From positions 1-21,968 of the forward strand of contig JBHGBC010000098.1 of the NCBI GenBank assembly GCA_041946805.1: a stretch of DNA of 21,968 nucleotides. Reading direction: 5' to 3'. The notes under the pieces were generated by a model, which saw only the letters and a program-made list of their open reading frames with translations, was not told the origin of the DNA and did not search any database. This stretch comes from a bacterium. Its GTDB lineage: Bacteria > Hinthialibacterota > Hinthialibacteria > Hinthialibacterales > Hinthialibacteraceae. Shown piece by piece: positions 1 to 21,968 of this stretch. Position numbers and translations under genes: made by a program. The stretch's first letter is position 1. Each line of letters opens with the position of its first letter.

Positions 1-68
1 GGACGTTCAACGAGGTGGTGCTGACCTACGATAAAACAACATCGATAGCGAATTGGGAAGTATTTTAG
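1..68 (+). CDS. 3' end of a gene cut by the window edge, probably secreted; ends ...TFNEVVLTYDKTTSIANWEVF*
   Basis: Frame from nt 3 is open to TAG at 66-68. Its C-terminus resembles those of the next two ORFs. Not in the ORF track. Confidence 0.65.
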   Translation, partial: TFNEVVLTYDKTTSIANWEVF

Positions 69-229
69 ATGGCTTTTGCACTTCGGGGCAATAAAAATAT
101 ATAGCAAGGAAGAAAAACATTGAGTAAACATATAGGATCGATTGCTTTCATTCTTACTGTTTCTTTAGTGGTCCAGAGAATCGAATAAGACAGCTCATAT
201 ACGGCGAACTACTGAAACGGGAGGATAGG

Positions 230-2188
230 ATGATGAAACATCTCCTTTCGGTTTTGTTTTTCGTGCCATTTGTTCTACCGGTATATGGTGCCGATGTCCC
301 GCTTCACCCCGGCACGGTCGTTCGCTTTGCCACGGTTGAAGAAGGGCGGGCGATTCTCGGCACCCTAGATGACTATGCACGGAACGTGAGTGCTTTTGAA
401 CTACAAGCCATCATGGGAAGCCAGAATCCTGTCTCGGTAGAGCAGTTTTTAGAATTTAGTGCTAAGGGAGTGGAGCCATGGGATGACACGCTGATTGCCG
501 AGACTACAGTCAGGATCAAGAGAGCGGCGTGCATGTTGGAAAAACTCGATTTGAATCTGCCGGAGGTCATTTATTGGATTAGAACGGAAGGAGGTTGGTG
601 TACACGGCAAAACGCGATAATTGGCGATAGCTGCAACGAATGGATCTTCGTTCACGAGCTCTTTCACATTTTCAGCCGCTACAATCCCGCCATTCGGGAC
701 AAGCTCTATTCCATTCTCGGTTATCATCCTTGCGGCGCGCCGATCAAGTATCCGGATTCGGTTGTAAGAATAACCAATCCCGACGCGCCGGTGACCGAGC
801 ATTACATCACGGTGAGTTATCGAGGCGAGCCACTCGCGGTCGCTCCCATCTATTATTCTAACAGTGAAACATACAAAGGCGGAGGTCTCTTCGATTATAT
901 CCAATATGGCCTCATGGCGGTCGAGGAGTCGAGCGAAGGATGGAAGTATAAATTGGTGAACGGTGAACCGCTGATTTTAAAAGAGAGCGATGTGGAAGGA
1001 TACTGGGAACAAGTCGGGAGGAATACCGATTACGATATTCATCCCGAAGAGAGAATGGCGGAGAACTTCAATATTCTATGCTCTGGGCGGCCTGGACATT
1101 ACTGGAACCTGCCAATGCCCCGTATTATAGAAGAGATGGATGCCTTGCTTGCGAAACCACGCGAATACCCCGAGGTTGTCACGGAGCCGCTCAGAGAATT
1201 CACCGACTCGCTCCCGTGGATTCAGACAATGCAATTTTCAGCGAATGATTCTGAAATTCTGACCTGCTCCTCTCTTGTTAATCCAGCAGGAGAAGCGAAA
1301 ATCACCCGATGGGACACGGAATCCGGCCAGCGGCTCGATACCTTTTCGGTTGACCGCTGGGATTCTATTGGATTTTCCCCTCATGGCAAGTATCTATTGC
1401 ATGTGATTGAGGGAGATATTACGATATGGGATATCGAAAATCAACACCCCTTGTACACTCTCCAGCACCCAGAAATCAATGTGAGTGGGCGACTAGAAAT
1501 ATTATATATTGAACCCTCTTGGGCTTTCTCACCCGATGAAACAAAAATGGCGATTTATTGGCGGTACGGGATCGGTTATGAGTCAGCTGGCGTCGTGCAC
1601 GGAACCACCAGCGGCACTACTGAGACGGCATTAAGGGATATGGTTACTGGATTAGAGCTGATGACTTTCCCAACAGACGATTCGGTTTATACACCACCCG
1701 TTTATACACCCGATTGTTCTCAAGTATTGATTGGCGGTTGCTTATACAACATTACAACCGGGCGCGAAGTGAAAAGATTTGAACTGTGGCCATATCCGGA
1801 GGTGTTCTCTCCCGATGGTGCCCGGTTTCTATCGACGGTATTTGTGGCGTTCTTCATCTCCCCTAGAGGAAGCGTACAATTGTCGGACGTTGCTACTAGC
1901 GAAGAGCTGCGCTCTTTCGCCTTTGTATATGGGTCTCATCCTTCGGCCCAGTTTTCGCCGGATGGAGAATTAATAGTAACTACGGACAGATATACGGTGA
2001 GCATCTGGAACAAAACCGGCGAAAAGGAAATCAGAGTGTTGCAGCATCCAAAAGAATCTTGTAATGCCATCTTTTCTTCAGATAGCAATTACATCCTAAC
2101 CAGCTGCGAGGATGGAATTGTGCGGCTGTGGAACATTCAAAACCTGGCCGGCACATCGAATGTAAGTGAGTTCATGCTGTATAGGTGA
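230..2188 (+). CDS. Secreted protein: N-terminal HExxH zincin-like domain plus C-terminal WD40/beta-propeller repeats
   Basis: GGAGG RBS just upstream; signal peptide MKHLLSVLFFVPFVLPVYG; FVHELFH and downstream IHPEERMAENF; repeated FSPDG..., I(T/S)IWD and DGIVRLWN WD40-type motifs. Confidence 0.8.
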   Translation: MMKHLLSVLFFVPFVLPVYGADVPLHPGTVVRFATVEEGRAILGTLDDYARNVSAFELQAIMGSQNPVSVEQFLEFSAKGVEPWDDTLIAETTVRIKRAACMLEKLDLNLPEVIYWIRTEGGWCTRQNAIIGDSCNEWIFVHELFHIFSRYNPAIRDKLYSILGYHPCGAPIKYPDSVVRITNPDAPVTEHYITVSYRGEPLAVAPIYYSNSETYKGGGLFDYIQYGLMAVEESSEGWKYKLVNGEPLILKESDVEGYWEQVGRNTDYDIHPEERMAENFNILCSGRPGHYWNLPMPRIIEEMDALLAKPREYPEVVTEPLREFTDSLPWIQTMQFSANDSEILTCSSLVNPAGEAKITRWDTESGQRLDTFSVDRWDSIGFSPHGKYLLHVIEGDITIWDIENQHPLYTLQHPEINVSGRLEILYIEPSWAFSPDETKMAIYWRYGIGYESAGVVHGTTSGTTETALRDMVTGLELMTFPTDDSVYTPPVYTPDCSQVLIGGCLYNITTGREVKRFELWPYPEVFSPDGARFLSTVFVAFFISPRGSVQLSDVATSEELRSFAFVYGSHPSAQFSPDGELIVTTDRYTVSIWNKTGEKEIRVLQHPKESCNAIFSSDSNYILTSCEDGIVRLWNIQNLAGTSNVSEFMLYR

Positions 2189-2235
2189 ATCATACAAGGA
2201 TCCAAAATAGAAATATATTTGAAAGGAATCCGATC

Positions 2236-4401
2236 ATGAAAAAGTACGTTGTCATTCTGCTTGCCGCCATGATATTTACGTTTCAAGCGGGGTGTGCGAA
2301 GATCATTTATGTATCCCAAACGGCCACCGGCAATCAAAGCGGTGAGGATTGGAATAACGCGTGCGCCAGCATCACCCAGGCGCTGACGGCCGCCAAAAAA
2401 GATCCGGATCTGAAGACCGAGATCTGGGTCGCCGCGGGGCAATATCGCGAAACCATTGCGATGAGAAATAAGGTTAAAATCTTTGGCGGCTTCAGCGGGA
2501 CCGAAAGCAACCAAGAGGACCGGAATTGGCTAGACCATGTTACCATCATCGATGGAACCGGGCTGGAGTCATCCACTGTCTCGGCGGTTGGCATTGGGGA
2601 AGCCGATTCGCAAGGATATATCACCGAATTGAACGGATTTACGATCCAAGGTTCATCCAAGAGCGGCATTTACTGCTCGAATGCCTCCCCCAACATCCTG
2701 AATTGCATCATCACTGCGAATGCCGCCCCGGAGGGAGGTGGAATCTACTGCGACCGTTCCTCTCCCCTCATCAGTTTTTGCGCCATCCTGCACAACACGG
2801 CGGAGAAAGGCGCGGGCGTGTATTGCAACCAATCCTCGCCGCGGATCACCAAAAGCGTCTTGGCCATGAACACAGCAACATCCGGGGGAGGGCTGTACTG
2901 CCAGAATCAATCGTTCCCGGGGCTGATCAATTGCACCCTGGCGGACAACGCCGGCAGCGGAATCGAGTGTGGATCAAGCGCCTGGGTGCGATTGCTCAAC
3001 TGCATCGTGTGGAATCCGGGGATTCAGATCGCGGGGGAGAATGCCGCGTCCTCGCGGGTGGAATACACCTGTCTCAGGAATGGTTGGGCGGGTTTAGGCA
3101 ACATCGCCGAGGATCCCTTGTTTGTGAATGACCAAACCGGGGACTATCACCTGCAGCCGGTTTCCCCCTGCGTCGACGCCGGCCATCCGGATCCGCTATG
3201 GAATGATGAAAAATTGCCTCCCGGATTGGGAAGCGCCCGCTGTGACATGGGCGCGTATGGAGGTACCGGCATGGCCGGCCTCCCGCTTCTCTTCACGGAT
3301 TCGGGCATCCTCCATGTCCGGGCGGACGCCGCGCCGGGCGGAAACGGCTCGTCCTGGGAAACCGCCCTGCCCTCCATTAATGCGGCCATCGCGTTGCAGA
3401 ATTACGGAGAAATTTGGGTTGCGCAAGGCCGGTATCATGAATCGGTCCAGTTGAAATCCGACGTGGCTGTCTATGGAGGATTTGCGGGGAGTGAAAAATC
3501 CCGCGACGCCCGCGATTGGTTGGCCAATGAAACTATTATCGATGCCTCCGGCTTGGAAAATTCCGCCGTGGTGGGCGCCAACCGCGCCCTGCTGGACGGC
3601 TTCACCGTGACGGGAGGAAATGAATCCCGAATCAAGTGCACCGAAACGTCTCCCACGGTGATGCACTGCACGATTACCAGCTCGGCATCCCTGACGAACG
3701 GAAGCGGTGTGCTTTGCGAACGATCGTCTCCCTTGTTTAGTTATTGCATCATTGCGGAGAATCATGTGAAAGAATTGGAGGGTGGTGGAGTACAATGCTC
3801 CGGGCTTGGTTCTCCGAAGTTTCTCAACTGCGTAATCGAAGACAACTCAGCCACTAAGGGAGGCGGGATTCATTGCTTTGCCGCCACAACGCCCCTGTTC
3901 ATGAATTGTATTATCGCCCGGAATACCGCCACGGAGAAAATGGATAATGAGCCCAGCGGAGGCGGAATGCATTTTGTGGTTGAACCGCCGACTTTGATCA
4001 ACTGCGTCATCACCGGGAACCACGGTACGGGAATTGTTGTAGTGGACGATAAGATCACCATTATAAATAGCATCATATGGAATAATTCGGATAAGGCGAT
4101 TTTCGTTGGCGAGAATATGCAGGAGAAAGCGAGGGTCAGCTATAGCTGCATCGAGGGAGGCTGGCCCGGCGAGGGCAACATTGATGCCGATCCCTTGTTC
4201 ATGGATCCGGAAAACGGCGATTACCATCTTCAAAACGGTTCTCCGTGCATCGATGCCGGGCTCGTGGCGAAGGCGCCCAACGAGGACGTGGAAGGCCGCG
4301 GCCGCCCGGGGAGCGACGGATTGGTGGACATGGGCGCGTATGAATCGATGCCGGAATACAGCGCCATGGTGTACGTAACGGATTGGGAGATGCATGATTG
4401 A
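2236..4401 (+). CDS. Secreted right-handed parallel beta-helix protein with two tandem modules (pectin-lyase-like; choice-of-anchor-Q-like ends)
   Basis: ATG 2236 follows GAAAGGA and gives a signal peptide (MKKYVVILLAAMIFTFQAGCA). Each module starts (Y/H)V...G..W..A, contains GGGIYC/NCII repeats and ends DPLF...DYHL..SPCxDAG...DMGAY. Confidence 0.85.
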   Translation: MKKYVVILLAAMIFTFQAGCAKIIYVSQTATGNQSGEDWNNACASITQALTAAKKDPDLKTEIWVAAGQYRETIAMRNKVKIFGGFSGTESNQEDRNWLDHVTIIDGTGLESSTVSAVGIGEADSQGYITELNGFTIQGSSKSGIYCSNASPNILNCIITANAAPEGGGIYCDRSSPLISFCAILHNTAEKGAGVYCNQSSPRITKSVLAMNTATSGGGLYCQNQSFPGLINCTLADNAGSGIECGSSAWVRLLNCIVWNPGIQIAGENAASSRVEYTCLRNGWAGLGNIAEDPLFVNDQTGDYHLQPVSPCVDAGHPDPLWNDEKLPPGLGSARCDMGAYGGTGMAGLPLLFTDSGILHVRADAAPGGNGSSWETALPSINAAIALQNYGEIWVAQGRYHESVQLKSDVAVYGGFAGSEKSRDARDWLANETIIDASGLENSAVVGANRALLDGFTVTGGNESRIKCTETSPTVMHCTITSSASLTNGSGVLCERSSPLFSYCIIAENHVKELEGGGVQCSGLGSPKFLNCVIEDNSATKGGGIHCFAATTPLFMNCIIARNTATEKMDNEPSGGGMHFVVEPPTLINCVITGNHGTGIVVVDDKITIINSIIWNNSDKAIFVGENMQEKARVSYSCIEGGWPGEGNIDADPLFMDPENGDYHLQNGSPCIDAGLVAKAPNEDVEGRGRPGSDGLVDMGAYESMPEYSAMVYVTDWEMHD

Positions 4402-4780: not shown

Positions 4781-6031
4781 ATGCCAACGTATTCGTATAA
4801 AGCGCTGGACAAGGGCGGGAGAGAAATCAAGGGATCGATCGAGGCCACGGGCGAGGAGGCGGTCGTCGAGCGGTTGCGCAGCATGGGGTATTACGTCACC
4901 CAGGTGAGCCGCTCGCGGGCGGGAGTCGGCCAGGTCGACATCATGGACATGCCGATCGTCCGGGGATTCCAGAAACTCATTTCCCGCGGGAAAGTCAAAC
5001 TCAAGCACATCTCCGCCTTTTCCCGGCAGTTGGCCACGCTGATCGGCGCGGGCCTGCCGCTATTGCGCAGCCTCCAGATTTTACAAGAGCAAGTGGAAGA
5101 CAAAAACCTGAAGGAAGCGGTGATCGGCATCACGGAATCGGTCGAAGGCGGCAGCACGCTTTCGGAGGCGATGGCCAAATATCCCAAGATCTTCAACCGC
5201 CTCTACGTCAACATGATCAAGGCGGGCGAGATCGGTGGCGCGCTCGAGCAGGTTTTGGACCGTCTGGCCCTCTTCCAGGAAAAGGCGCAGGCCGTGCGCT
5301 CGAAGGTCAAGGGGGCGATGTGGTACCCCGCGGTGGTTATCACCATCGCCATGACGGTCGTGACCATCATTTTGATCTTCGTGGTACCCAAGTTCGCCGA
5401 CATGTTCAAGGGGCTGGGTTCGGAACTGCCCTGGCTCACCCAGAAACTGGTGGACTTCAGCGACAACCTAGTGATTTACTGGTACATTCCCGCGTTGATC
5501 ATTGTCGCCATCATCGTGCTCTTGAAATTGACCGCCAAATCCAGCCAAGGGCGCTACATTCTGGACCGGATCAAACTGCGGATGCCGGTCTTCGGCGGCA
5601 TTATTCAGAAATCCGCCATCGCCCGGTTCGCCCGGACCTTCGGAACGCTGCTGGATACGGGCGTTCCCATCCTCCAGACCCTGCTCATTGTCAAGGACAC
5701 GTCCGGCAACGAGGTGATCTCGCGCGCGATGGTGGACATCCACGCCTCCATCCGCGACGGCGACACGGTTTCGGAGCCGATGAAAAACTTCTCCATCTTC
5801 CCGCCGCTGGTCGTGCACATGATCGCCGTCGGGGAGGAAACCGGCGCGCTGGACAAGATGCTGATCAAGGTGGCGGAAGCGTACGAACGCGAGGTGGATG
5901 ACGCCGTCGACGGCTTGGCGAAGCTGATCGAGCCGCTGCTCATCGTGATGCTGGGCGGCATCATCGGAACCGTCGTCGTCGCCTTGTACCTGCCGATCTT
6001 CAGCATCACCAACGCGATGGGCAAAAAATAG
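4781..6031 (+). CDS. pilC: Type IV pilus / type II secretion inner-membrane platform protein (PilC/GspF family)
   Basis: MPTYSYKALD start; FSRQLATLIGAGLPL, MIKAGEIGGAL, FARTFGTLLDTGVPIL, MIAVGEETGALDKML and LIEPLLIVMLG...ALYLPIF motifs. Confidence 0.93.
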   Translation: MPTYSYKALDKGGREIKGSIEATGEEAVVERLRSMGYYVTQVSRSRAGVGQVDIMDMPIVRGFQKLISRGKVKLKHISAFSRQLATLIGAGLPLLRSLQILQEQVEDKNLKEAVIGITESVEGGSTLSEAMAKYPKIFNRLYVNMIKAGEIGGALEQVLDRLALFQEKAQAVRSKVKGAMWYPAVVITIAMTVVTIILIFVVPKFADMFKGLGSELPWLTQKLVDFSDNLVIYWYIPALIIVAIIVLLKLTAKSSQGRYILDRIKLRMPVFGGIIQKSAIARFARTFGTLLDTGVPILQTLLIVKDTSGNEVISRAMVDIHASIRDGDTVSEPMKNFSIFPPLVVHMIAVGEETGALDKMLIKVAEAYEREVDDAVDGLAKLIEPLLIVMLGGIIGTVVVALYLPIFSITNAMGKK

Positions 6032-9088: not shown

Positions 9089-9250
9089 ATGAAACGAACC
9101 TATCAACCCAGTAACATCAAGCGGATACGGACACATGGCTTTCGGGCCCGGATGAAAACGCGCGGCGGCCGCGATGTGCTGCGCCGCCGCCGGTTCAAGG
9201 GGAGACACTGCTTGACGGTGTCGGAATCCATGGGTTTGAAGATGCTGTAA
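9089..9250 (+). CDS. rpmH: 50S ribosomal protein L34 (53 aa)
   Basis: Translated by hand (below the ORF-track cutoff): [53 protein letters not shown]; lies directly upstream of rnpA. Confidence 0.97.
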
Positions 9251-9354
9251 AGCGGATCGTACCCGGGAGTCGGCCTGCGCCGGGCGCGCCGTGGACTATG
9301 CTTGTGCGCGCCGGGATGGGCGGATAGTAATGGGATCCGGCGGAAGCGACGATT

Positions 9355-9705
9355 TTGGATGAACGGTTTCGCCCAACGGAGCACTTGCGTAAGAAAACCG
9401 AGATCACAGCGGTTTTACGGCAGCCCGGCCGTCAGGGGACGTATTGCGTCCTGCATGTGCTTCCCTGCGGCCGGCCTTATTCCCGGTTGGGATTGGTTGT
9501 GAGCCGGGCGGCGGGTCCGGCGGTGTCGCGCAATCGGGCCAAGCGGCGGATCCGCGAAATTTTCCGCCGCGTGAAAGGCCGTTTTACCCGGACGGCCGAC
9601 CTGGTTATCCGGGCCAGGCGGACGATCAGCGAAGCGACCTACGGGCAACTGGCGGCCGACATCACCGGTTTAATGATACGGGAACATCTTTTGGAAAAGC
9701 AGTGA
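9355..9705 (+). CDS. rnpA: Ribonuclease P protein component
   Basis: RLGLVVSR and AVSRNRAKRRIRE (RNR motif), DLVIRAR; TTG start bounded by an in-frame TAA at 9328-9330; synteny. Confidence 0.95.
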   Translation: MDERFRPTEHLRKKTEITAVLRQPGRQGTYCVLHVLPCGRPYSRLGLVVSRAAGPAVSRNRAKRRIREIFRRVKGRFTRTADLVIRARRTISEATYGQLAADITGLMIREHLLEKQ

Positions 9706-9783
9706 GCCTGCCATCCATAAAGGGATTATTCCGGAGGATGTTTACCTCATCCGGCCGGAGTGGAAGCGGGCGGCGGAGAAAAC

Positions 9784-10059
9784 GTGGCGGAAAGCACGCG
9801 CGGATTGTGTTCCATGCCGGCGCGGGTGGTGATGGCCTTCCTGCGAGGCTATCACCGCTGGATCTCTCCCTATTTACTTCCGGCGTGCCGGTTTTATCCC
9901 ACCTGTTCCGTTTACGCGGTGGAAGCGATTGGCTCCCATGGATTGATCAAAGGGGGATATCTCGCTCTCAAACGGTTGATGAAATGTCATCCCTTCCACC
10001 CGGGCGGCGTGGATTTCCCGCCGAAGCCTTCCGCGGAGAAGGACCGGCCCCGGCCGTAA
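9784..10059 (+). CDS. yidD: Membrane protein insertion efficiency factor YidD
   Basis: ISP...[15 protein letters not shown]...[15 protein letters not shown]; start uncertain (9760, 9784 or 9814). Confidence 0.93.
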
Positions 10060-10089
10060 CGGCTGTTCATTCATGCATGTGGCGGTTTC

Positions 10090-12009
10090 ATGGATACAGA
10101 AAAACGACTGGCTTTATGCTTCGCGTTGTCCATGCTGATCATCCTGGCGTTCAGCTGGTTTAACGCCCAAAAACTGTCCGAACAACGGAAAGCCCAGGAG
10201 ACGTCCGCTCCCGCCGAAGTCCAGGGGACCGCCGGTGAGATCATTTCCGGAGCCACGGCCGGCGCCACGCCTTTTCCGGAACGGGAGGAGCCGGCGGCGC
10301 GGCCGGGAGAGGCCACCGCGGCGGTTTCATCATGGGGATGGCTTCCCTGGCAGGCGGAGGGGGGAGCCGCTCGGGAGGTGGTCGTCGAAAGCGGCCTGTA
10401 CCGCGTGACGTTCAGCACCCGCGGCGCCGTGCCAGTATCCTGGCAACTGATCCAGTATCCGGAATTGCTTTCCGACCCGCGTTATCTCCGCCTGCAAAGC
10501 ACCCGCGGCCCGGTGTACCTGCAGCAAAAAGCCCAGTTGGAACTAAGCCGCCTCGAAGCGCACGGGGACGGCAAGCCTCATTACGTGGATGCGATCGATC
10601 CCCATTTCGAGCCGGGCGAGGTGGGCCTCGTGATCCGGTGGGGCCGGGCGGGGACGGACGCGTCGTTGCTGTATGACGCGCCGTCGGATCATTACACGGT
10701 CACGGATCCGGCGGGAACCGAAGTGCGGTTCAGCCTGGAATCAAAGGGGGTGAGACTGGAGAAAATCTATCGATTCTATCCCGGGAGTTATCATCTGGAT
10801 TTTGAAATCCGCATCGCCAATCAAAGCGGTCAACCGATACCTTATGATCAGGATGGATTTTATGACGTGGTCTGGTTGGGCGGATTCGGATTTCCTTCTT
10901 TCCGTTGGGATGCCCAAAACAGCATTTATATCCAGCAGGAAGGATCGATTCTCACCGAACCGGCCACGTCCCTGCTGACGGAGTTGCAAAACGCGGGTAC
11001 GCCGTATCTGCGTGAATACGGTCCGGAATCTCCCACTCAGTTGTTGACCGGAAAACCGGCCGGCTGGGCGGGGGTGGGCGAGAAATATTTTCTGGCCGCC
11101 CTGGTTCCCCACACCCCCACGCGTCTGGCGCTGAAGGGGGTCTCATTCCCGAAGAAAAGCGAAGCCCAGGCCATCTACAAGCCGCACGCGGGGGTCCGCA
11201 TGACGATGGCGCCCATTCTGAATGGGGCCGTGTATTCAGACAAATACACTGTGTATGTCGGCTCCATGGACGAAGACAGCCTGGCGAAAGCCCAGGCGGG
11301 ATTGGAGGATGCGCGCCAGATTTTCCTGCGCCGGATCGTCGGCCCCATCGCCAATCTGATGCTGCGGTTTCTGCAGGGACTGTACGCCATCGTCCCCAAC
11401 TACGGGGTGGTGATCATTTTGCTGACCGTGATCATCAAACTGCTGATGCTGCCCATGTATCACAAGCAGATCCGCTCGATGAAAAAAATGCAGGCGTTGC
11501 AGCCCCAGATCAACGACCTCAAAAACCGGTACAAGGACGATCCCCAGAAGCTGCAAAAAGAGCAGATGGAACTGTTCAAAAAGCACAAGGTCAATCCCCT
11601 CTCGGGGTGCCTGATGATGCTTACCACGGTTCCCATATTCATCGCCTTGTACGCCACCTTCGCCATGGCGGTGGAGCTGCGGGGAGCACCGTTCGTCGGC
11701 TGGATTCGCGACTTGTCCGCGCCTGACGGAGCGTTTTTCCTCCCCCTCGGTTCGACCATCTTCACCGTAAACATTCTGCCCATCGCCTATTCGGTGCTGA
11801 TGCTGTGGAGTTCCAGCCAGCAGAAGGTGGAAGGCCCCAATGCGGCGATGATGAAAATCTTCCCCCTGATTTTCGTCTTCTTCTTCTGGTCGATCGCCTC
11901 GGGGGTCATATTGTATTTCGTCATCAGCATTTTCATCGACGTCGTCCAACGCTTAGCAATGGAGAAATTCAGCCCGGATCCGGTTCCCGCGGGCGGGAAA
12001 GACAAATAA
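10090..12009 (+). CDS. yidC: Membrane protein insertase YidC
   Basis: N-terminal TM, large periplasmic domain, NYGVVIILLTVIIKLL, SMKKMQALQP, KVNPLSGCL, ELRGAPFVGWIRDLSAPD and SGVILY motifs. Confidence 0.97.
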   Translation: MDTEKRLALCFALSMLIILAFSWFNAQKLSEQRKAQETSAPAEVQGTAGEIISGATAGATPFPEREEPAARPGEATAAVSSWGWLPWQAEGGAAREVVVESGLYRVTFSTRGAVPVSWQLIQYPELLSDPRYLRLQSTRGPVYLQQKAQLELSRLEAHGDGKPHYVDAIDPHFEPGEVGLVIRWGRAGTDASLLYDAPSDHYTVTDPAGTEVRFSLESKGVRLEKIYRFYPGSYHLDFEIRIANQSGQPIPYDQDGFYDVVWLGGFGFPSFRWDAQNSIYIQQEGSILTEPATSLLTELQNAGTPYLREYGPESPTQLLTGKPAGWAGVGEKYFLAALVPHTPTRLALKGVSFPKKSEAQAIYKPHAGVRMTMAPILNGAVYSDKYTVYVGSMDEDSLAKAQAGLEDARQIFLRRIVGPIANLMLRFLQGLYAIVPNYGVVIILLTVIIKLLMLPMYHKQIRSMKKMQALQPQINDLKNRYKDDPQKLQKEQMELFKKHKVNPLSGCLMMLTTVPIFIALYATFAMAVELRGAPFVGWIRDLSAPDGAFFLPLGSTIFTVNILPIAYSVLMLWSSSQQKVEGPNAAMMKIFPLIFVFFFWSIASGVILYFVISIFIDVVQRLAMEKFSPDPVPAGGKDK

Positions 12010-12141
12010 ACACCCCTTTCGCGGCGTTTTCCCGCGACTGAACGTTACCCGGCCGCCCGCCACGATCCCCTCCGCCGCCATCACGCGGCGCGGGCACGGC
12101 CGGGCGCCTGGACCGCATCCGGGTCAGATGGAGGAAACCCT

Positions 12142-12978
12142 ATGAAAGAAGTGATCGGTAAAGGCAAATCATTGGACCTGGCGACCGAGGACGCCTTAAA
12201 ACAACTCAACGCGGAACGGCAGGAGGTGGAAGTGGAACCCCTGGCGACCGGCTCGCGCGGCTTTTTGGGCATCGGCGCCCGGCCGGCCCAGGTGCGGGTG
12301 ACCTTGCGCCCGGACAACCGCATCCGCACTAACGTGTTCCTGCGCAACATCCTCGGGCACATGGGCATCACCACTTCCGTGCAAATCCAGGAGGAGGGCG
12401 AGACCATCACCATCACCCTGGGCGAGGAGGCGGCCACGCTCATTGGCCATCGCGGCCAGACGCTGGATTCCCTGCAATACCTGATCGCCCGGTACCTCAA
12501 CGAAGACAAGGAAGAATGGCGTAAGGTGGTGGTGGACATCGACAACTACCGCGACCGGCGGGAAGAGAACCTCAAGGCCATGGCCGAGCGCATGGCCGAG
12601 CAGGTCATCCGCAGCAAGCGGGACCTGCGGACCGAACCACTCACCGCGCCCGAACGGCGGATCATTCACATGACGCTGAAGGAAAACGCCGCCGTAACCA
12701 CGTTCAGCGTGGGCGAGGGAATGCGCAAGCGAGTGGTCATCACTTCCGCCGAGAAGTCGTCCGAATCGCCGCGCCGGTACAATCCACGCCGGGGCGGGCG
12801 GGGTGGCGGTCAGTCGGGCGAACGGCGTCCGGGAGGCGGGCGCGGGCCGGGGGGCGGTGGACGCCGGAGCGGCCAGCCCGAGGGACGAAGCAATTCCGTC
12901 AACCGCCGGGGCGGACGGAGCCGCCGGGGTGGAGGCGAGGGCCGCCGTTCCGAGCCAAGGCCGCAGAGCGAGGCTTAG
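12142..12978 (+). CDS. jag: RNA-binding protein Jag/EloR/KhpB (Jag_N, KH, R3H) with an R/G-rich tail
   Basis: GKSLDLA...GFLGIG (Jag_N), LIGHRGQTLDSLQYL (KH GxxG), ERRIIH (R3H); follows yidC. Confidence 0.94.
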   Translation: MKEVIGKGKSLDLATEDALKQLNAERQEVEVEPLATGSRGFLGIGARPAQVRVTLRPDNRIRTNVFLRNILGHMGITTSVQIQEEGETITITLGEEAATLIGHRGQTLDSLQYLIARYLNEDKEEWRKVVVDIDNYRDRREENLKAMAERMAEQVIRSKRDLRTEPLTAPERRIIHMTLKENAAVTTFSVGEGMRKRVVITSAEKSSESPRRYNPRRGGRGGGQSGERRPGGGRGPGGGGRRSGQPEGRSNSVNRRGGRSRRGGGEGRRSEPRPQSEA

Positions 12979-13051: not shown

Positions 13052-13134
13052 CTTTCCTTACCTGCAACAACACTATATAGTATTACTGGGGGGTGATTGC
13101 TGAAACAAGGAAATGGAAGGCTGGAGGTTTTCTC

Positions 13135-13395
13135 ATGGTACCGGAACTTACGATTCAGGAAAAATTGGATTATTTAGTCAAAACGACCGGCCTGGGGACG
13201 AGGGATGTAATCGCGGATGCATTGGAACAAGGTATAACTGAACTCTACCGGCGTCAGATCAAATCCGCCTATTTGAATGATGCCATTAACCGCAACGAAG
13301 CCCTGGACCGGCTGGGGGAGGAATTCGTGGCCGAGATCGATTACGCACGGGAATCCATAAAACGCGACGTACTTTGGGGGCTGCGGCGTGAATAA
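13135..13395 (+). CDS. Small helical protein, putative antitoxin of the downstream PIN gene
   Basis: GGAGG RBS before ATG 13135; 86 aa; overlaps the start of the PIN gene by 8 nt; near-palindrome AACACTATATAGTATT at 13069-13084 upstream. Confidence 0.65.
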   Translation: MVPELTIQEKLDYLVKTTGLGTRDVIADALEQGITELYRRQIKSAYLNDAINRNEALDRLGEEFVAEIDYARESIKRDVLWGLRRE

Positions 13396-13890
13396 TGTGG
13401 CCTTAGCTGATACAGGACCCTTGCTTCATCTGGTGGAAATTCAACAAGAGTCATTACTTTCCATTTTTCCGATCGTGTACGTCACAACGGAAATCGAAGC
13501 GGAACTGCTCCGCCTCGGTGTGCTCGCGCTGATTCGGAAAGTACTCTCCTCCAATCTGCATATTATGCAATTGGCTTCTCATGTCCTCCCTGTACATTCC
13601 CAAGAAGGAAATACAATGCGATTACCACCGGCGGATCGGAGTGTGATAATTCTGGCAAACCAAATCAAACCAGATATCCTTTTATGCGATGATCTGTTTC
13701 TCCGGCGTATTTGGAAACCATAGGTTATCAGGCAACCGGTAGTGTAGGGATTTTGATACGAGCCTTCCAGATGCAATCTATTTCCAAACCAGAACTTCAG
13801 ACACACCTGAACCGTCTTTTTAATGTCAGCAGTCTGTATCTCAGCCGGGAGTTTTTCACATACGTGTGCGGCATGGTGGAGAATCTGTGA
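13388..13890 (+). pseudogene. PIN-domain (DUF3368/COG2405-like) nuclease, frameshifted near 13709
   Basis: ALADTGPLLHL, ADRSVIILA and LLCDDLFLRR in the first frame (stop 13723). The expected C-terminus LETIGYQATGSVGILIRAFQ...SLYLSREFF...VENL* continues in another frame to TGA 13890. Confidence 0.8.
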
Positions 13891-15577: not shown

Positions 15578-15611
15578 GTGGTTGCGGCTCGCGAGGTCCT
15601 TCTCCCCCGGC

Positions 15612-15839
15612 GCGCGGGGTGAAATGAATGAGGATAGTGATTTGGATTTATTAGTGATCATGCCGGATGGAACCCATCGGCGAAGAACGGCAGGAACCTT
15701 GTATATGAAATTATCGGATGTCCCTGTACCTATTGATTTTACCGTGTCCACAGAATCAGACTTGCGAAAACATGGGGAGAATTAAAGCCTGATTTATTAT
15801 CCCGCCCTGAGAGAGGGAATAGAGATTTATGCGACCTAA
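15612..15839 (+). pseudogene. Minimal nucleotidyltransferase (MNT) antitoxin remnant
   Basis: ARGEMNEDSDLDLLVIM...VPIDFTVST.SDLRKHGEN*SLIYYPALREGIEIYAT*. The N-terminal LFGS part is missing and there is an internal TAA at 15783-15785. Confidence 0.75.
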
Positions 15840-18684: not shown

Positions 18685-18911
18685 TGGCTTTATTTAATTT
18701 CGTATATTTAAATAATTTTTGTTTATAATTATTATATACAAAGTCATATTTACAGACGAGCGTTGGATTGAATGTTTTAGTGAGTCACCGATGATTGATG
18801 AATTTCTTCGTTTGTTGATACGTTAACGAGACTTCGTATCACTCCGTCTTTCCCTGTTATCCGTATCTTGCACTGCTTTCCTATGGGTTGATGGCGAGTA
18901 GGGATGTTCCA

Positions 18912-19901
18912 ATGACTCGCATCCTTGGGAGAGGAAGGTGGATCCGCTACTCACCACGGCCGTGGGCGGCCGTGCTGGGTTTTCTCCTTCTTTTCCCGGC
19001 GGCGGGGCGGGTGCAAGAAATCACCGCCCCGTTGCCCCCAATCCCTGAAATGCGTCCCATCGAATTCGGCCTGAACCTCTCCACCCTGATCCTGGAAGAA
19101 ACCGGCACCGAGGGCGAATACCTTTCGCCGGAGACCGCCTCGTTCCGCCTGCTCAGCTGGATCGACGATTGGCGGGTCTCGTGCGTGGCCGAAGCGGCGG
19201 TTGGTCCGGAGGGAGAGACCATCCCGCCAACCCATTTTTACCTGCTCGGGGGCGCCAACGGCGCTTCCGCCAGCCTGGAGCAGCCGGTGGTGATCGCGGA
19301 AGGGGGGCCGTTGGAGGGCAAGCCGGTCGACGCCGCCTCTTTCCGGCTCTGCGCGCGGATCGATCCCCTGCAGCCGGCAGGCGAATACCGGGGAACCCTT
19401 CTGTTCTATATCGAGACCGGGCGGAAGGGCACGGTGATCACCGGCCCGTCGTTGCCCTTCATGTTTCAATGCCGCGAGTTCATCAAGGTGTGGGTGAGCG
19501 AGGACATGGCATTCGGGACCTGCCAGCCGGGGATCAACCAGCCGCGGGACCATATATCCCAGACCACGCCCAAGGTGACGGTGCTCACCAACCGCCGGGG
19601 CGTGAAAGTCCACGCCGAGATGACCGACCTGAGTTACGAAGAGGGACCCGGCGGCGGGGGCGGCCCGATCACCGGCTCGCAACTGGCGCTGGCCTACGGC
19701 GAAACCCCGGGTTTGGCGCGCGGCAACGCGGCTTCCGCCCCCTTGGGAGGAACGGCGATCGACTGGTACCCCTACCCGCGCTCGGGCGCTTGGCCCTTTT
19801 GCGACCGTTCGATTTACCTCGGCGGCAAGGTGAGCATCGACCTGCACAACTCCGCCGGATTTTACCGGGGCGTGATCTACGTGACGTGCGAGGCGGAATG
19901 A
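18912..19901 (+). CDS. Secreted two-domain beta-rich protein, putative pilus tip/minor subunit
   Basis: Signal-like N-terminus (WAAVLGFLLLFPAAG). Both halves end in a pilin-type terminal strand: IDPLQPAGEYRGTLLFYI and IDLHNSAGFYRGVIYVTC. Start uncertain (18888, 18891 or 18912). Confidence 0.6.
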   Translation: MTRILGRGRWIRYSPRPWAAVLGFLLLFPAAGRVQEITAPLPPIPEMRPIEFGLNLSTLILEETGTEGEYLSPETASFRLLSWIDDWRVSCVAEAAVGPEGETIPPTHFYLLGGANGASASLEQPVVIAEGGPLEGKPVDAASFRLCARIDPLQPAGEYRGTLLFYIETGRKGTVITGPSLPFMFQCREFIKVWVSEDMAFGTCQPGINQPRDHISQTTPKVTVLTNRRGVKVHAEMTDLSYEEGPGGGGGPITGSQLALAYGETPGLARGNAASAPLGGTAIDWYPYPRSGAWPFCDRSIYLGGKVSIDLHNSAGFYRGVIYVTCEAE

Positions 19902-19903
19902 TT

Positions 19904-20193
19904 CCAGGGGCAAAATGCCAGGGGCGAAGTGCCAGGGGCGGTGCCCCTGGCTAAGCTAAGGCCACCCCTTCGGGGTTCAAAAAATGAAATGAAGCCCTGG
20001 AAGGGCGCATTCTGATTAGCCAGGGGTAAAACCCCTGGCGAGGAGGAATGCCAAGGATTTTGAGGCCAGGGGTTGTACCCCTGGCTAACCTTGGGTCACC
20101 CCTCCGGGGTTCAAAAAATGAAATGAAGCCCTGGAAGGGCGCTTTCTGATTAGCCAGGGGCATCGCCCCTGGCGGGAGGAACGCCAAGGATTT
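19904..20193. repeat. REP/BIME-like palindromic array: two ~130-bp tandem units (19931-20060, 20065-20193) plus two partial CCAGGGGC copies
   Basis: Each unit has GCCAGGGG-N-CCCCTGGC twice, ACCCC-N3-GGGGT, TCAAAAAATGAAATGAA and GCCCTGGAAGGGC; period 133-134 nt. Confidence 0.85.
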
Positions 20194-20564
20194 GCAAGTC
20201 AGGAGAATCGCCCCGGGCGGAGGCCCCCTCCGGGGGATAAATACCAATGCCGTTTCCGGACCGTTGTTGCGCCGGGTAGGAAAATCGTTGGGAGCCGGTT
20301 GCAAGGGACGAACGTCCCCAAAGGTCCCGCTCCAGGAAAAAGGTCCAAAACCTGGGATGTTCCATGCGGAGCATCCGAACCATAGTCCGTTCCCCCGAAG
20401 ACCGGGGAACGATGCCGTTCGATCGCTCGAACACCGGACCTTATTTCTTGGAACTTGAAAACACGGGACTTGGGAAGAATTCGACCTGGAGCCCGCGAAG
20501 GGGAATACCCGTGGATCAAAGGAACAGGAAAGCGGTGAAAGGAGGTGAAAACGATACCCGAGAC

Positions 20565-20603
20565 AAAAAAACCGCCCGGAGAAAGGCTAGTTTCCCCGGA
20601 CGG
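20565..20603 (-). terminator. Rho-independent terminator on the minus strand
   Basis: Minus strand reads CCGTCCGGGGAAA-CTAGCC-TTTCTCCGGGCGG-T7. The two non-Watson-Crick positions are G-U on the minus strand but A-C on the plus strand. Confidence 0.75.
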
Positions 20604-20661
20604 CCGGCCGTGAGGCCAAGGCTCCGGAGGGCGCTGGTCGCGGACCCCATCCGAAGGCCTG

Positions 20662-20670
20662 TGCTACATT
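20662..20670 (+). promoter_or_regulatory. Candidate extended -10 promoter for the riboswitch-pilin transcript
   Basis: TG-c-TACATT, predicting +1 near 20677; lies within the inverted repeat GTGCT-N7-AGCAC (20661-20677); no good -35. Confidence 0.45.
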
Positions 20671-20713
20671 GAAGCACGAATCGCGTTCCGCGGCAACCAA
20701 GAAGTAATGCGAA

Positions 20714-20789
20714 CGTGGAGGCGACGATCCGCCGTCCCGAATGTGGTCATCTATGGGACGGCGGGGAGCCAGTGGTGAAACCGGCCGCG
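20714..20789 (+). ncRNA. Cyclic di-GMP-II riboswitch aptamer
   Basis: P1 CGTGG/CCGCG; unpaired A20719; P2 GGC/GCC; tandem GA/GA kink-turn (20726-27, 20766-67); P3 CCGCCGTCCC/GGGACGGCGG; loop TGGTCATC can pseudoknot with GGTGA-A-ACCG. The 3' segment GAGCCAGTGGTGAAACCGGCC fits the class II pattern GAGYYAGTRGTGMAACCGRCY. Confidence 0.85.
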
Positions 20790-20814
20790 CAATCCATGCG
20801 AAAGGAACACGATC

Positions 20815-21309
20815 ATGAAATACTTCATTCCCATGTTCGCACTGCTGGCGTTGTTTGCCGCGCCGGTGATTGTTGCAGATGATACTTCGGTAGCAATTAA
20901 CCTTACTGTTGATGAGGTAATGTATGCATATTTTGGAGATGGATCTGATATGGCTGATGTTGTTTTGGAATTTGATCCTCAAACGGGTTTTAAAGATCCG
21001 TATTCGGGAACACATGCAGATATCGATTTAACTGCTAAAGCGTATGCGAATGAAAATTTGGCAGTGACTTTCACTCTAACTAAACCAGAGGGTTCATCAG
21101 CACCAGGAACATGGACACTTAGTGTTTATAAAGATTATGGATATGGTTCGGGTTCCTGGGTAGTAGGAAACCCTAGTACTCATTATCAACCTCTAGGAGA
21201 AGATGAAAGAAATTATTCAATTGCGGTAGATATTGATATTCCTTTAAACACTCCTGCTTTTGTGACTACAACAGCTGGTACTTTAGTTATTACTTTTGCT
21301 GGATATTAA
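20815..21309 (+). CDS. Secreted 164-aa beta-rich protein, putative major pilin of a chaperone-assembled pilus
   Basis: GAAAGGA RBS; Sec signal peptide; mature N-terminus DDTSVAINLTVDE has alternating hydrophobic residues (donor-strand-like); ends AGTLVITFAGY; no Cys; no type IV prepilin G/FxxxE motif. Confidence 0.65.
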   Translation: MKYFIPMFALLALFAAPVIVADDTSVAINLTVDEVMYAYFGDGSDMADVVLEFDPQTGFKDPYSGTHADIDLTAKAYANENLAVTFTLTKPEGSSAPGTWTLSVYKDYGYGSGSWVVGNPSTHYQPLGEDERNYSIAVDIDIPLNTPAFVTTTAGTLVITFAGY

Positions 21310-21341
21310 AATAAACGATAAATATCTTTTTTATGTTATTA

Positions 21342-21375
21342 ATATCCGGGAAATATTTTTCCGGATATCTTTTTT
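21342..21375 (+). terminator. Terminator/stabilising hairpin between the pilin-like and chaperone-like genes
   Basis: ATATCCGGGAAA-TAT-TTTTCCGGATAT followed by C and T6. Confidence 0.65.
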
Positions 21376-21405
21376 AAGAGTTATCATAAATAGGTAATGA
21401 TAGAT

Positions 21406-21968
21406 ATGAAAAATAATTATATATACATTATAGTCTTTTATCTATTTGCTGTAATTGATTTTCCTCTACCTGTATATAGTCAAGGTTTTTTAATAAAACC
21501 GTTGAAAATCCATTGTTATCCTTATCCTGGTAGAATCATTGAAGAAAAACTTGTAATAAGAAATATATTATCGAATAAAAACATTATTGTTGATCTTAAT
21601 GTCAGTGATTTAACTCAAAATGATGAAGGTGCTTGGAAAATAATTGATTCCAATAATTCACCAGATAACAAATATTTATATTCGTGTAAAGACTGGATTT
21701 CATTAAATACGAATACCTTAGAAATCTCACCTTTAAACTCCGTTACGTTAAACATACGTATAAAAGTTCCTGCGAATAAATATGGATTTTATACAGCTTG
21801 TCTTCTTGCTCAAACAAGGAAAGAACCCAATGTAAAAGGCATTGCTGTTGTTATCAGATATCTGATTCCAATTTTAGTTGAAATTAAAGGTCCTGTTCTA
21901 AAAAAACAAATTGAAATAACAGATGCTAATATTAAAAATTTGGAATCTAATGATAAAATCAAATCAAA
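21406..21968 (+). CDS. Secreted Ig-fold protein, putative pilus assembly chaperone (PapD-like or DUF916-like); partial, runs off the window
   Basis: Not in the ORF track. Frame is open from ATG 21397/21406 to the end: MKNNYIYIIVFYLFAVIDFPLPVYSQGFLIKPLKIHC...PGRIIEEKLVIRN...SCKDWISLNTNTLEISPLNSVTLNIRIKVP...GFYTACLL...IRYLIPILVEIKG. Confidence 0.7.
   Translation, partial: MKNNYIYIIVFYLFAVIDFPLPVYSQGFLIKPLKIHCYPYPGRIIEEKLVIRNILSNKNIIVDLNVSDLTQNDEGAWKIIDSNNSPDNKYLYSCKDWISLNTNTLEISPLNSVTLNIRIKVPANKYGFYTACLLAQTRKEPNVKGIAVVIRYLIPILVEIKGPVLKKQIEITDANIKNLESNDKIKS

Follow-up and report, generated by a model that had tools for sequence, protein, structure and literature searches.

Three consecutive open reading frames (ORFs) at the start of a contig from a bacterium of the phylum Hinthialibacterota end in a similar short run of residues, which raises the question of whether this C-terminal tag is a protein-sorting signal and, if so, what reads it. 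The contig (JBHGBC010000098.1, here C314; its 21,968 nucleotides are referred to below as the window) belongs to a 6.7 Mb genome (G000) that is 97% complete. The tag was found to be real and genome-wide, and it very probably serves as a label for surface export or display. Its carriers are proposed to donate a missing strand to a giant, truncated pilin of the K family and to ride at the tip of a type IV filament, a reading that is given a probability of roughly 0.55; that the tagged proteins use some type IV filament route is considered likely.

The tag in the window and across the genome

The tails of the window proteins were scored with an 11-column profile built from the whole of G000, with a main cut-off of 10 bits. 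ORF1 ends in TTSIANWEVF, ORF2 in GTSNVSEFMLYR and ORF3 in MVYVTDWEMHD, as had been stated in a sequence-only reading of the window; the third tail, at 7.5 bits on the whole-genome profile, lies under the cut-off (see Table 1 for the other two). With contig C314 excluded from training, the scores were 18.9–19.8 bits for ORF1, 14.1–18.1 for ORF2 and 8.7–9.9 for ORF3. At least 6 bits was reached by just 20 of 20548 internal controls, and ORF3 is counted as a weak member because homologues of it bear clear tags, those of P0030 and P0039 being canonical (20.6 and 23.7 bits); a further homologue, P0025 (57% identity), has an end similar to that of ORF3 (8.7 bits). As ORF1 is a 21-residue contig-end fragment, its signal peptide and its unrelatedness to the other two are uncheckable. 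Contig C65 closes with an almost identical gene end (86% DNA identity over 169 nt).

For the whole genome, genes (4753) and signal peptides were called with home-made methods, and tags with an iterated tail profile. The consensus T-x-[VI]-x-[DEGN]-W-x-[LVI]-[YFH] was present at 169 of the 4753 gene ends at 10 bits or more (about 3.5% of all genes), whereas in the controls it was reached by 2 of 20548 internal pseudo-ends and, among the ends of uncalled ORFs, by 8 of 51913, and the C-terminal enrichment for which the sequence-only reading had proposed a check was thereby found. In cross-validation by contig, the tag was scored at 81 of 2381 and 77 of 2372 gene ends, with 0 of 10284 and 1 of 10264 in the matching controls. 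In 164 of the 169 tags the chain ends at W+3 or W+4, which places the tag within one residue of the stop, and the remaining columns are conserved around the Trp (W 89%, V/I at W-3 88%, L/V/I at W+2 83%, Y/F at W+3 71%). The shared tail described from the window thus exists, but its consensus is centred on the Trp, and the [WF]-[EM] positions of the earlier form are specific to the window; tag 2 is an F variant, and such variants make up 8% of tags. No NCBIfam or Pfam model matched the tails of the 23 members scanned, in agreement with the suggestion that no described sorting domain is involved.

Predicted export and cargo of the tagged proteins

A signal peptide was predicted in 128 of 134 tagged proteins and in 1183 of 2804 untagged ones (complete proteins of at least 250 aa) by a crude heuristic that over-calls, with 42% of untagged proteins passing it; the direction is that expected in the sequence-only reading. 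Among the six tagged proteins that did not pass, a signal peptide can be seen by eye in five and the sixth is a probable chimera. In this gene (G000:C223:61-1392), which sits at the contig start, a DnaX N-terminus runs in frame into the last 200 aa of a tagged secreted protein, this C-terminus being 58% identical to a tagged secreted gene on contig C296. It was considered as a cytoplasmic carrier of the tag and set aside as a probable chimera or mis-assembly on account of the contig start and of DnaX being joined to a secreted-type end. A further transmembrane (TM) helix after the signal peptide was found in 1 of 136 tagged against 573 of 2842 untagged proteins, which fits the earlier remark that the motif has neither TM helix nor basic tail.

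When the tails were removed, 156 tagged proteins fell into 82 BLAST groups, 66 of them singletons. Seventy-four tagged proteins, picked by clustering on contigs and not randomly, were scanned against Pfam at 1e-6, with matches in 27 and none in 47. The cargo is of surface type and comprised seven CBM9, six LamG and three CotH domains, two MtrC/MtrF-like multiheme cytochromes and single examples of others, and no outer-membrane barrel family occurred among the 27 proteins with matches. Neither PF18962 nor PF05567 (the PilY1 propeller) was detected in any of the 74 full proteins, and since PF05567 is absent and the domains are diverse, most carriers are not PilY1 proteins. Three tagged multiheme cytochromes (G000:C242:238-8361, L160, and C5:1636-2862) contain 9, 10 and 7 CxxCH motifs, two of them having the MtrC/MtrF-like domains. 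Those on C242 stand on either side of small cytochrome genes and a barrel-like gene, an arrangement that suggests a conduit for extracellular electron transfer.

The homologues of ORF3 indicate where the tag sits. Among the 120 homologues listed, a tag of at least 7 bits was found in 8 (the query included), a C-terminal domain (CTD) of the type IX secretion system (T9SS; PF18962) was annotated in 6 and a dockerin (PF00404) in 6; because these domains stand in place of the tag, it is taken to occupy a sorting-signal slot. Another recurring short C-terminal motif, [YF]-L-P-[LV]-[IV]-x-[RK], was seen on beta-helix homologues of ORF3 from other lineages (P0056, P0059, P0065, P0117, P0123, P0130, P0132 and P0143).

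Dockerins in the same slot, the free C-terminal position and a linker enriched in Thr (2.4-fold) and Pro (1.9-fold) ahead of the tag would suit docking on a non-pilus scaffold, such as an S-layer or a cellulosome-like structure, or reading by a periplasmic chaperone, PDZ protein or protease. A partner of this sort was not identified, though none was searched for specifically, and the match to a K-family strand and the truncated K pilin described below would both be left unexplained. This explanation is regarded as rather improbable.

The T9SS CTDs in that slot could also point to a pared-down signal of T9SS type, or to one for another outer-membrane translocon or anchor, that a PorV-like barrel would read, with cutting or attachment by C25 peptidases. 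This was the initial guess. There is one PorV-family match (E 1.3e-10, under the cut-off) along with three C25 peptidases, and CotH and LamG are common T9SS cargo. However, what matched SprA is a fragment of 53 positions within an unrelated membrane protein, GldM was found in 0 of 5 genomes and TIGR04183 nowhere in G000 (searches in which the controls were silent), the nine residues of the tag compare with a folded CTD of ~72 positions, and no tagged genes lie beside the C25 and PorV-like genes. The guess was lowered because its parts are patchy, with no convincing SprA or GldM, and it is now seen as very unlikely. The C25 peptidases are themselves large secreted proteins of the gingipain/PorU type (1281, 1812 and 4885 aa), found with the PorV-like barrel and no clear T9SS core at G000:C259:5788-38088 (L007, L008), C251:31144-36558 and C289:1380-16013. 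Three adjoining proteins of 1000–1600 aa occur at these loci, and the two that were scanned had no Pfam match.

Taxonomic distribution

The spread of the tag was measured by a DNA pattern against a reversed control. The pattern was clearly above this control in 34 of 35 Hinthialibacterota genomes; of 116 genomes drawn from other phyla, 115 gave at most 7 hits. The one outlier (14 hits, 1 in the control) belongs to Sumerlaeota, and in that phylum 33 of 61 genomes had at least 5 hits over control and 15 at most one hit. The lineage-specific export, anchoring or docking tag of the sequence-only reading is therefore supported in substance, but the lineage spans at least two phyla, Hinthialibacterota and much of Sumerlaeota.

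The tag could instead be a beta-signal for the beta-barrel assembly machinery, could be left over from genes shuffled recently, or could have arisen by chance. The terminal aromatic residue is in keeping with the first of these, and a few tags are on fragments or the probable chimera. On the other hand, the tag was found on none of seven proteins with a typical barrel-type C-terminus, the cargo domains are soluble, the carriers fall into many sequence groups that are mostly singletons, and the tag persists in two phyla, with background levels in 115 of the 116 genomes from others. Explanations of this kind are largely refuted by the tag statistics and are given hardly any credence.

A giant truncated K pilin as candidate reader

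The sequence-only reading had guessed at a beta-barrel, a peptidase or a scaffold as partner, and the evidence points to the tip of a type IV filament instead. In the PilC/PilY1 system, the last ~10–12 residues of PilC/PilY1 complete the sheet of PilK in trans, whereas GspK, from the system for type II secretion (T2SS), supplies the strand in cis and T2SS cargo needs no strand addition (PMC13533445). In PilC/PilY tails a Trp is conserved and position W+3 is hydrophobic, PilC2 having W1498 and I1501 and ending at 1502 (PMC13711793).

In G000 the last pilin gene (G000:C79:18073-24531) of an H-I-J-K operon (G000:C79:14172-25933, L020) encodes a K protein which lacks Glu5 at its N-terminus and ends in RTLETVYER. 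A Pfam-confirmed GspK paralogue on contig C16 ends in KEIYAILDR-GISPPGIRVWKVTR; it runs 14 residues beyond the end of giant K, this extension closing with I-x-x-W-K-V-x-R, so that giant K stops at the end of the penultimate strand, where GspK continues into its final one. All 30 fetched orthologues of giant K end within one residue of the Arg aligned to the 'DR' of GspK. Each of the 35 genomes of the phylum had a match to giant K (E<1e-60 in 26, weaker in 9), and the H-I-J-K order seen in G000 recurred in all 6 further genomes that were read, with broken or partial frames in G001 and G031. A metagenome scan returned four close truncated relatives, with most other matches being GspK-like with cis strands. 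The K-family identity of giant K is supported by the missing Glu5, by a profile match of its C-terminal region to the GspK of the same genome at 92% and by a predicted model of its last 262 residues that ends in a terminal beta-hairpin (pLDDT 63). For the last 55–60 residues, hhalign gave 50% over 26 columns, and because this short-end comparison reached only that value, the register of the two ends was taken from MAFFT and visible motifs.

The I, J and K pilins are enlarged to 505, 444 and 2152 aa by Asp-rich DxDxDG-like repeats, which are probably calcium-binding. In G000 the K gene is followed by a conserved 429-aa secreted protein with no Pfam match, and similar genes are found in G012, G003 and G023. 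Parts of a retractile type IVa pilus were also detected, with three PilT over cut-off, 12 matches to PF00437 (assembly ATPase), 8 secretin matches and the PilC of the window.

The extra strand of GspK (I at W-3 66%, W 83%, V at W+2 72%, hydrophobic at W+3) shares with the tag a spacing of I/V at W-3, W, V/L at W+2, a hydrophobic residue at W+3 and an end at W+3 or W+4. A reduced pattern, [VI]xxWx[VLIM]x(1,2) followed by the stop, which was chosen after GspK had been seen, matched 110 of 169 tags and 19 of 29 GspK orthologues, compared with 8 of 4584 other gene ends and 9 of 19785 internal controls. One of these eight is GspK itself and several look like weak tags.

The following mechanism may be considered. 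A tagged carrier has a predicted Sec signal peptide and no membrane helix; the acceptor is a K-family pilin without Glu5, last in H-I-J-K and one strand short; and the final strand of GspK has the spacing of the tag, these three steps being visible in the sequences. By analogy with PilC/PilY1, the cargo would then fold in the periplasm and its tail would complete the sheet of K, after which the I-J pair would recognise the completed sheet and the filament would extend via the secretin with the cargo at its tip. The cargo might stay there as an interchangeable adhesin or enzyme on a retractile pilus, three PilT homologues being present, or it might be released.

Evidence against the K pilin and an alternative route

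Several results weigh against the truncated K pilin as reader. The full tag profile scores the GspK strand at -10.3, with W-1, W+1 and W-5 differing, and after the Trp the PilY1 tails continue R-E-hydrophobic where the tag has x-L-Y. The modelled K fragment compares weakly with the solved GspK and XcpX structures (Z 4.3 and 4.4, ranks 8–9; root-mean-square deviation (rmsd) 2.5 and 2.7 over 68 and 70 aligned residues) and is matched better by ComEA-type helix-hairpin-helix domains. Foldseek gave no match to it in PDB at E<=0.001, and a PDB sequence search with the K alignment gave nothing meaningful. Complex prediction with N- and C-terminal pieces of K as two chains and a 36-residue tagged tail scored 0.00, in a job unlike the calibration and with the partner fold uncertain, and speaks neither for nor against binding. 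No tagged gene was found in or beside the K operon in the seven regions read, unlike pilY1, and no precedent was found for one acceptor serving ~170 donors.

The most serious of these points come from Sumerlaeota, where none of 38 fetched K homologues is truncated. Thirty of them align and have their own cis last strand, among them all 25 from tag-rich genomes. Seven more tag-rich matches are likewise untruncated, six ending in a cis-type strand and one being a short doubtful ORF, and two further genes are not truncated either. The other 8 of the 38, all from tag-poor genomes (L298, L300-L303, L305, L306 and L309), are longer, with frames of 917–1080 aa and long unrelated tails, the K homologues of tag-rich families having the short cis strand instead. 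A paralogue may have been missed, because the short hidden Markov model used for K recovered such genes from no more than 5 of 12 and 5 of 13 Sumerlaeota genomes. The reader in Sumerlaeota could be such a paralogue, strand exchange could take place, or something else could be at work, and a cis-strand K in tagged Sumerlaeota weakens the case for the truncated K in Hinthialibacterota too.

A tagged phylum in which only cis-strand K homologues were found would be accommodated if the tag were a linear signal read by type IV filament machinery by a way other than truncated K, displacing the ordinary cis strand of GspK or binding the I-J groove, the expanded GspG-like pilins or the secretin, with the cargo released as in the T2SS. 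G000 has three GspK-containing T2SS-like operons, and MtrC-type cargo is T2SS cargo in Shewanella. Type IV pilus machinery also secretes chitinases in Francisella (10.64898/2026.05.11.724269).

The prepilins of G000, 129 in one count and mostly GspG/EpsG-like, are a further point for such a signal, as they are linked to tagged genes. In all, 129–139 prepilin genes were counted, mostly of one paralogous family, with ~115 GspG-like paralogues of ~190 aa scattered singly (e.g. L151:89-577, L165), whose N-termini are identical and whose C-terminal part has the conserved motif Y-x-x-[ST]-N-G-x-x-S-x-G-D-I. The family folds like GspG/EpsG (Z 8.2, rmsd 2.4, 95 aligned). A pilin gene lies at most two genes away from 37 of 169 tagged genes and 95 of 893 untagged secreted genes (p 2e-4), a proximity that also speaks for strand donation to truncated K. 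Similar expansions occur in all 35 Hinthialibacterota genomes (27–207 pattern hits per genome) and in the 61 Sumerlaeota genomes searched. Pilin and tag numbers are, however, loosely tied across genomes: the counts per Mb gave rho 0.29 (p 0.09) in the 35 Hinthialibacterota genomes and -0.02 within the family of the window, the counts in 61 Sumerlaeota genomes gave rho 0.29 (p 0.02), and some Sumerlaeota genomes have 46–130 pilins yet 0–3 tag hits. The expanded pilins had been considered as partner of the tag and were lowered on these grounds; from the weak correlation they seem likelier to be shaft subunits than the tag reader. A signal that bypasses truncated K would also leave its conserved truncation unexplained, and is considered unlikely.

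Donation of the strand to truncated K remains the preferred explanation. It is suggested, more tentatively, that the tag is a general linear address label, with one giant K taking 100–200 folded cargoes (lectins, enzymes, cytochromes) and ~100 GspG-like pilins forming the shaft. If true, this would be a plug-and-play type IV filament for display or secretion with a portable nine-residue signal. Signals for type II secretion are conformational and ill-defined, and here folded proteins would pass a secretin by means of a short portable one. In Hinthialibacterota and many Sumerlaeota the surface proteome, candidate extracellular cytochromes included, would become predictable from sequence alone, and the tag could be used as a nine-residue display tag. 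The 2026 description of strand addition at the pilus tip concerned one to three dedicated adhesins per genome; here a strand of this kind is found on ~3.5% of genes, beside a conserved acceptor-like pilin, in a phylum of which no member has been cultured.

No description of the tag was found in a literature search that did not cover supplements and had most subscription journals outside it. The words 'secretion' and 'C-terminal' are absent from the available part of PMC9324843, and the part of a sorting-signal preprint that could be consulted (10.1101/2023.06.07.544157) makes no mention of Sumerlae-, BRC1 or OLB16.

Genes of the window

The positions of the tags and of the genes around them are given in Table 1. 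The WD40 and beta-helix cargo named in the sequence-only reading was confirmed by Pfam in ORF2 (PF00400, E 2.9e-10) and ORF3 (PF13229, E 5e-29; also NF041518, 51.9 bits with a cut-off of 25). Its zincin is visible only as an HExxH motif read from the sequence at 653-667, a region of ORF2 without a Pfam or NCBIfam family match that may encode a putative zinc peptidase. The stand-alone pilC/gspF gene starts 380 bp past the third tagged gene, outside any pilus operon; its best NCBIfam models are type IV pilus PilC, all below cut-off, and its adjacency to the tagged genes may be due to chance.

Table 1. Features of the window related to the tag, with positions in nucleotides.
Feature	Position	Strand	Evidence
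ORF1, C-terminal gene fragment cut by contig start, 21 aa + stop	3..68	+	near-identical gene end on C65
Tag 1, T-S-I-A-N-W-E-V-F, immediately before stop	39..65	+	20.8 bits
ORF2, 652 aa: predicted signal peptide, HExxH region, WD40 propeller, tag	230..2188	+	
Tag 2, S-N-V-S-E-F-M-L-Y, one residue from stop	2156..2182	+	18.5 bits
ORF3, 721 aa: predicted signal peptide, right-handed beta-helix repeats, choice-of-anchor Q domain, tag	2236..4401	+	
Choice-of-anchor Q domain, ORF3 residues 662-704	4219..4347	+	stops 7 residues before tag
Tag 3, V-Y-V-T-D-W-E-M-H, one residue from stop, weak member	4369..4395	+	7.5 bits
Stand-alone PilC/GspF inner-membrane platform gene	4781..6031	+	PF00482, E 5e-63

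The FGE, GH89 and two pilin-like or unknown proteins of the window, of which the first kinds had been said not to carry the motif clearly, are untagged, the called genes scoring negative, and none of the other window ORFs of at least 100 aa scored above 0. A cluster at 9089-12978 presumably has the order rpmH-rnpA-yidD-yidC-jag, with yidC identified by NCBIfam and the other four recognised from sequence. It is followed at 13093-13723 by a small gene pair which we take to be like a toxin-antitoxin module, the second gene appearing PIN-like by its motif, and at ~15590-15785 by a short nucleotidyltransferase-like ORF. Three successive untagged genes (337, 164 and >190 aa) with signal-peptide-like starts lie on the + strand at 18888-21966, the last with a weak WxLIP_PGBD match (E 5e-5), and appear to resemble a chaperone-usher or WxL-like surface cluster.

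Comparison with known systems

Short C-terminal signals present in many copies on unrelated proteins are known from LPXTG, PEP-CTERM, GlyGly-CTERM and MYXO-CTERM (10.1101/2023.06.07.544157). Unlike these tripartite signals, the tag has no TM helix and no basic cluster and ends at the stop. The type A CTD of the T9SS (TIGR04183/PF18962) is likewise a C-terminal export label without a TM helix, found on many unrelated Sec proteins and in the same slot in ORF3 homologues, but it is a folded domain of ~70 residues which needs SprA, PorKLMN, PorV and PorU. The T2SS pilin GspK/XcpX (PDB 3CI0, 5VTM) has a cis terminal strand, and its family in this genome ends in P-P-x-I-x-x-W-K-V-x-R with the spacing of the tag, the difference being that the strand belongs to the pilin itself. 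Cyanobacteria have an enlarged PilX with a cis strand, which is a different solution (PMC13759059).

The tag most resembles the C-beta tail of PilC/PilY1/MshQ, read by PilK/PilX, in comprising ~10 terminal residues with a Trp, a hydrophobic residue at W+3 and an end at W+3 or W+4 (PMC13533445, PMC13711793, PMC13190605). Both systems have a secreted carrier without a membrane anchor and, in Hinthialibacterota, a K-family partner in an H-I-J-K operon that lacks Glu5 and the last strand. They differ in that ~170 carriers in at least 82 sequence groups stand against 1–3 PilY1 paralogues (myxobacteria average two; PMC13190605), in that tagged genes are scattered outside the minor-pilin operon and in that K is here about 2150 aa. 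PF05567 was found in 0 of 35 genomes, but the positive controls were likewise silent. As the carriers are neither PilY1 proteins nor operon-linked, the tag was not filed as a member of the PilC/PilY1 system; what is new here is the candidate reader.

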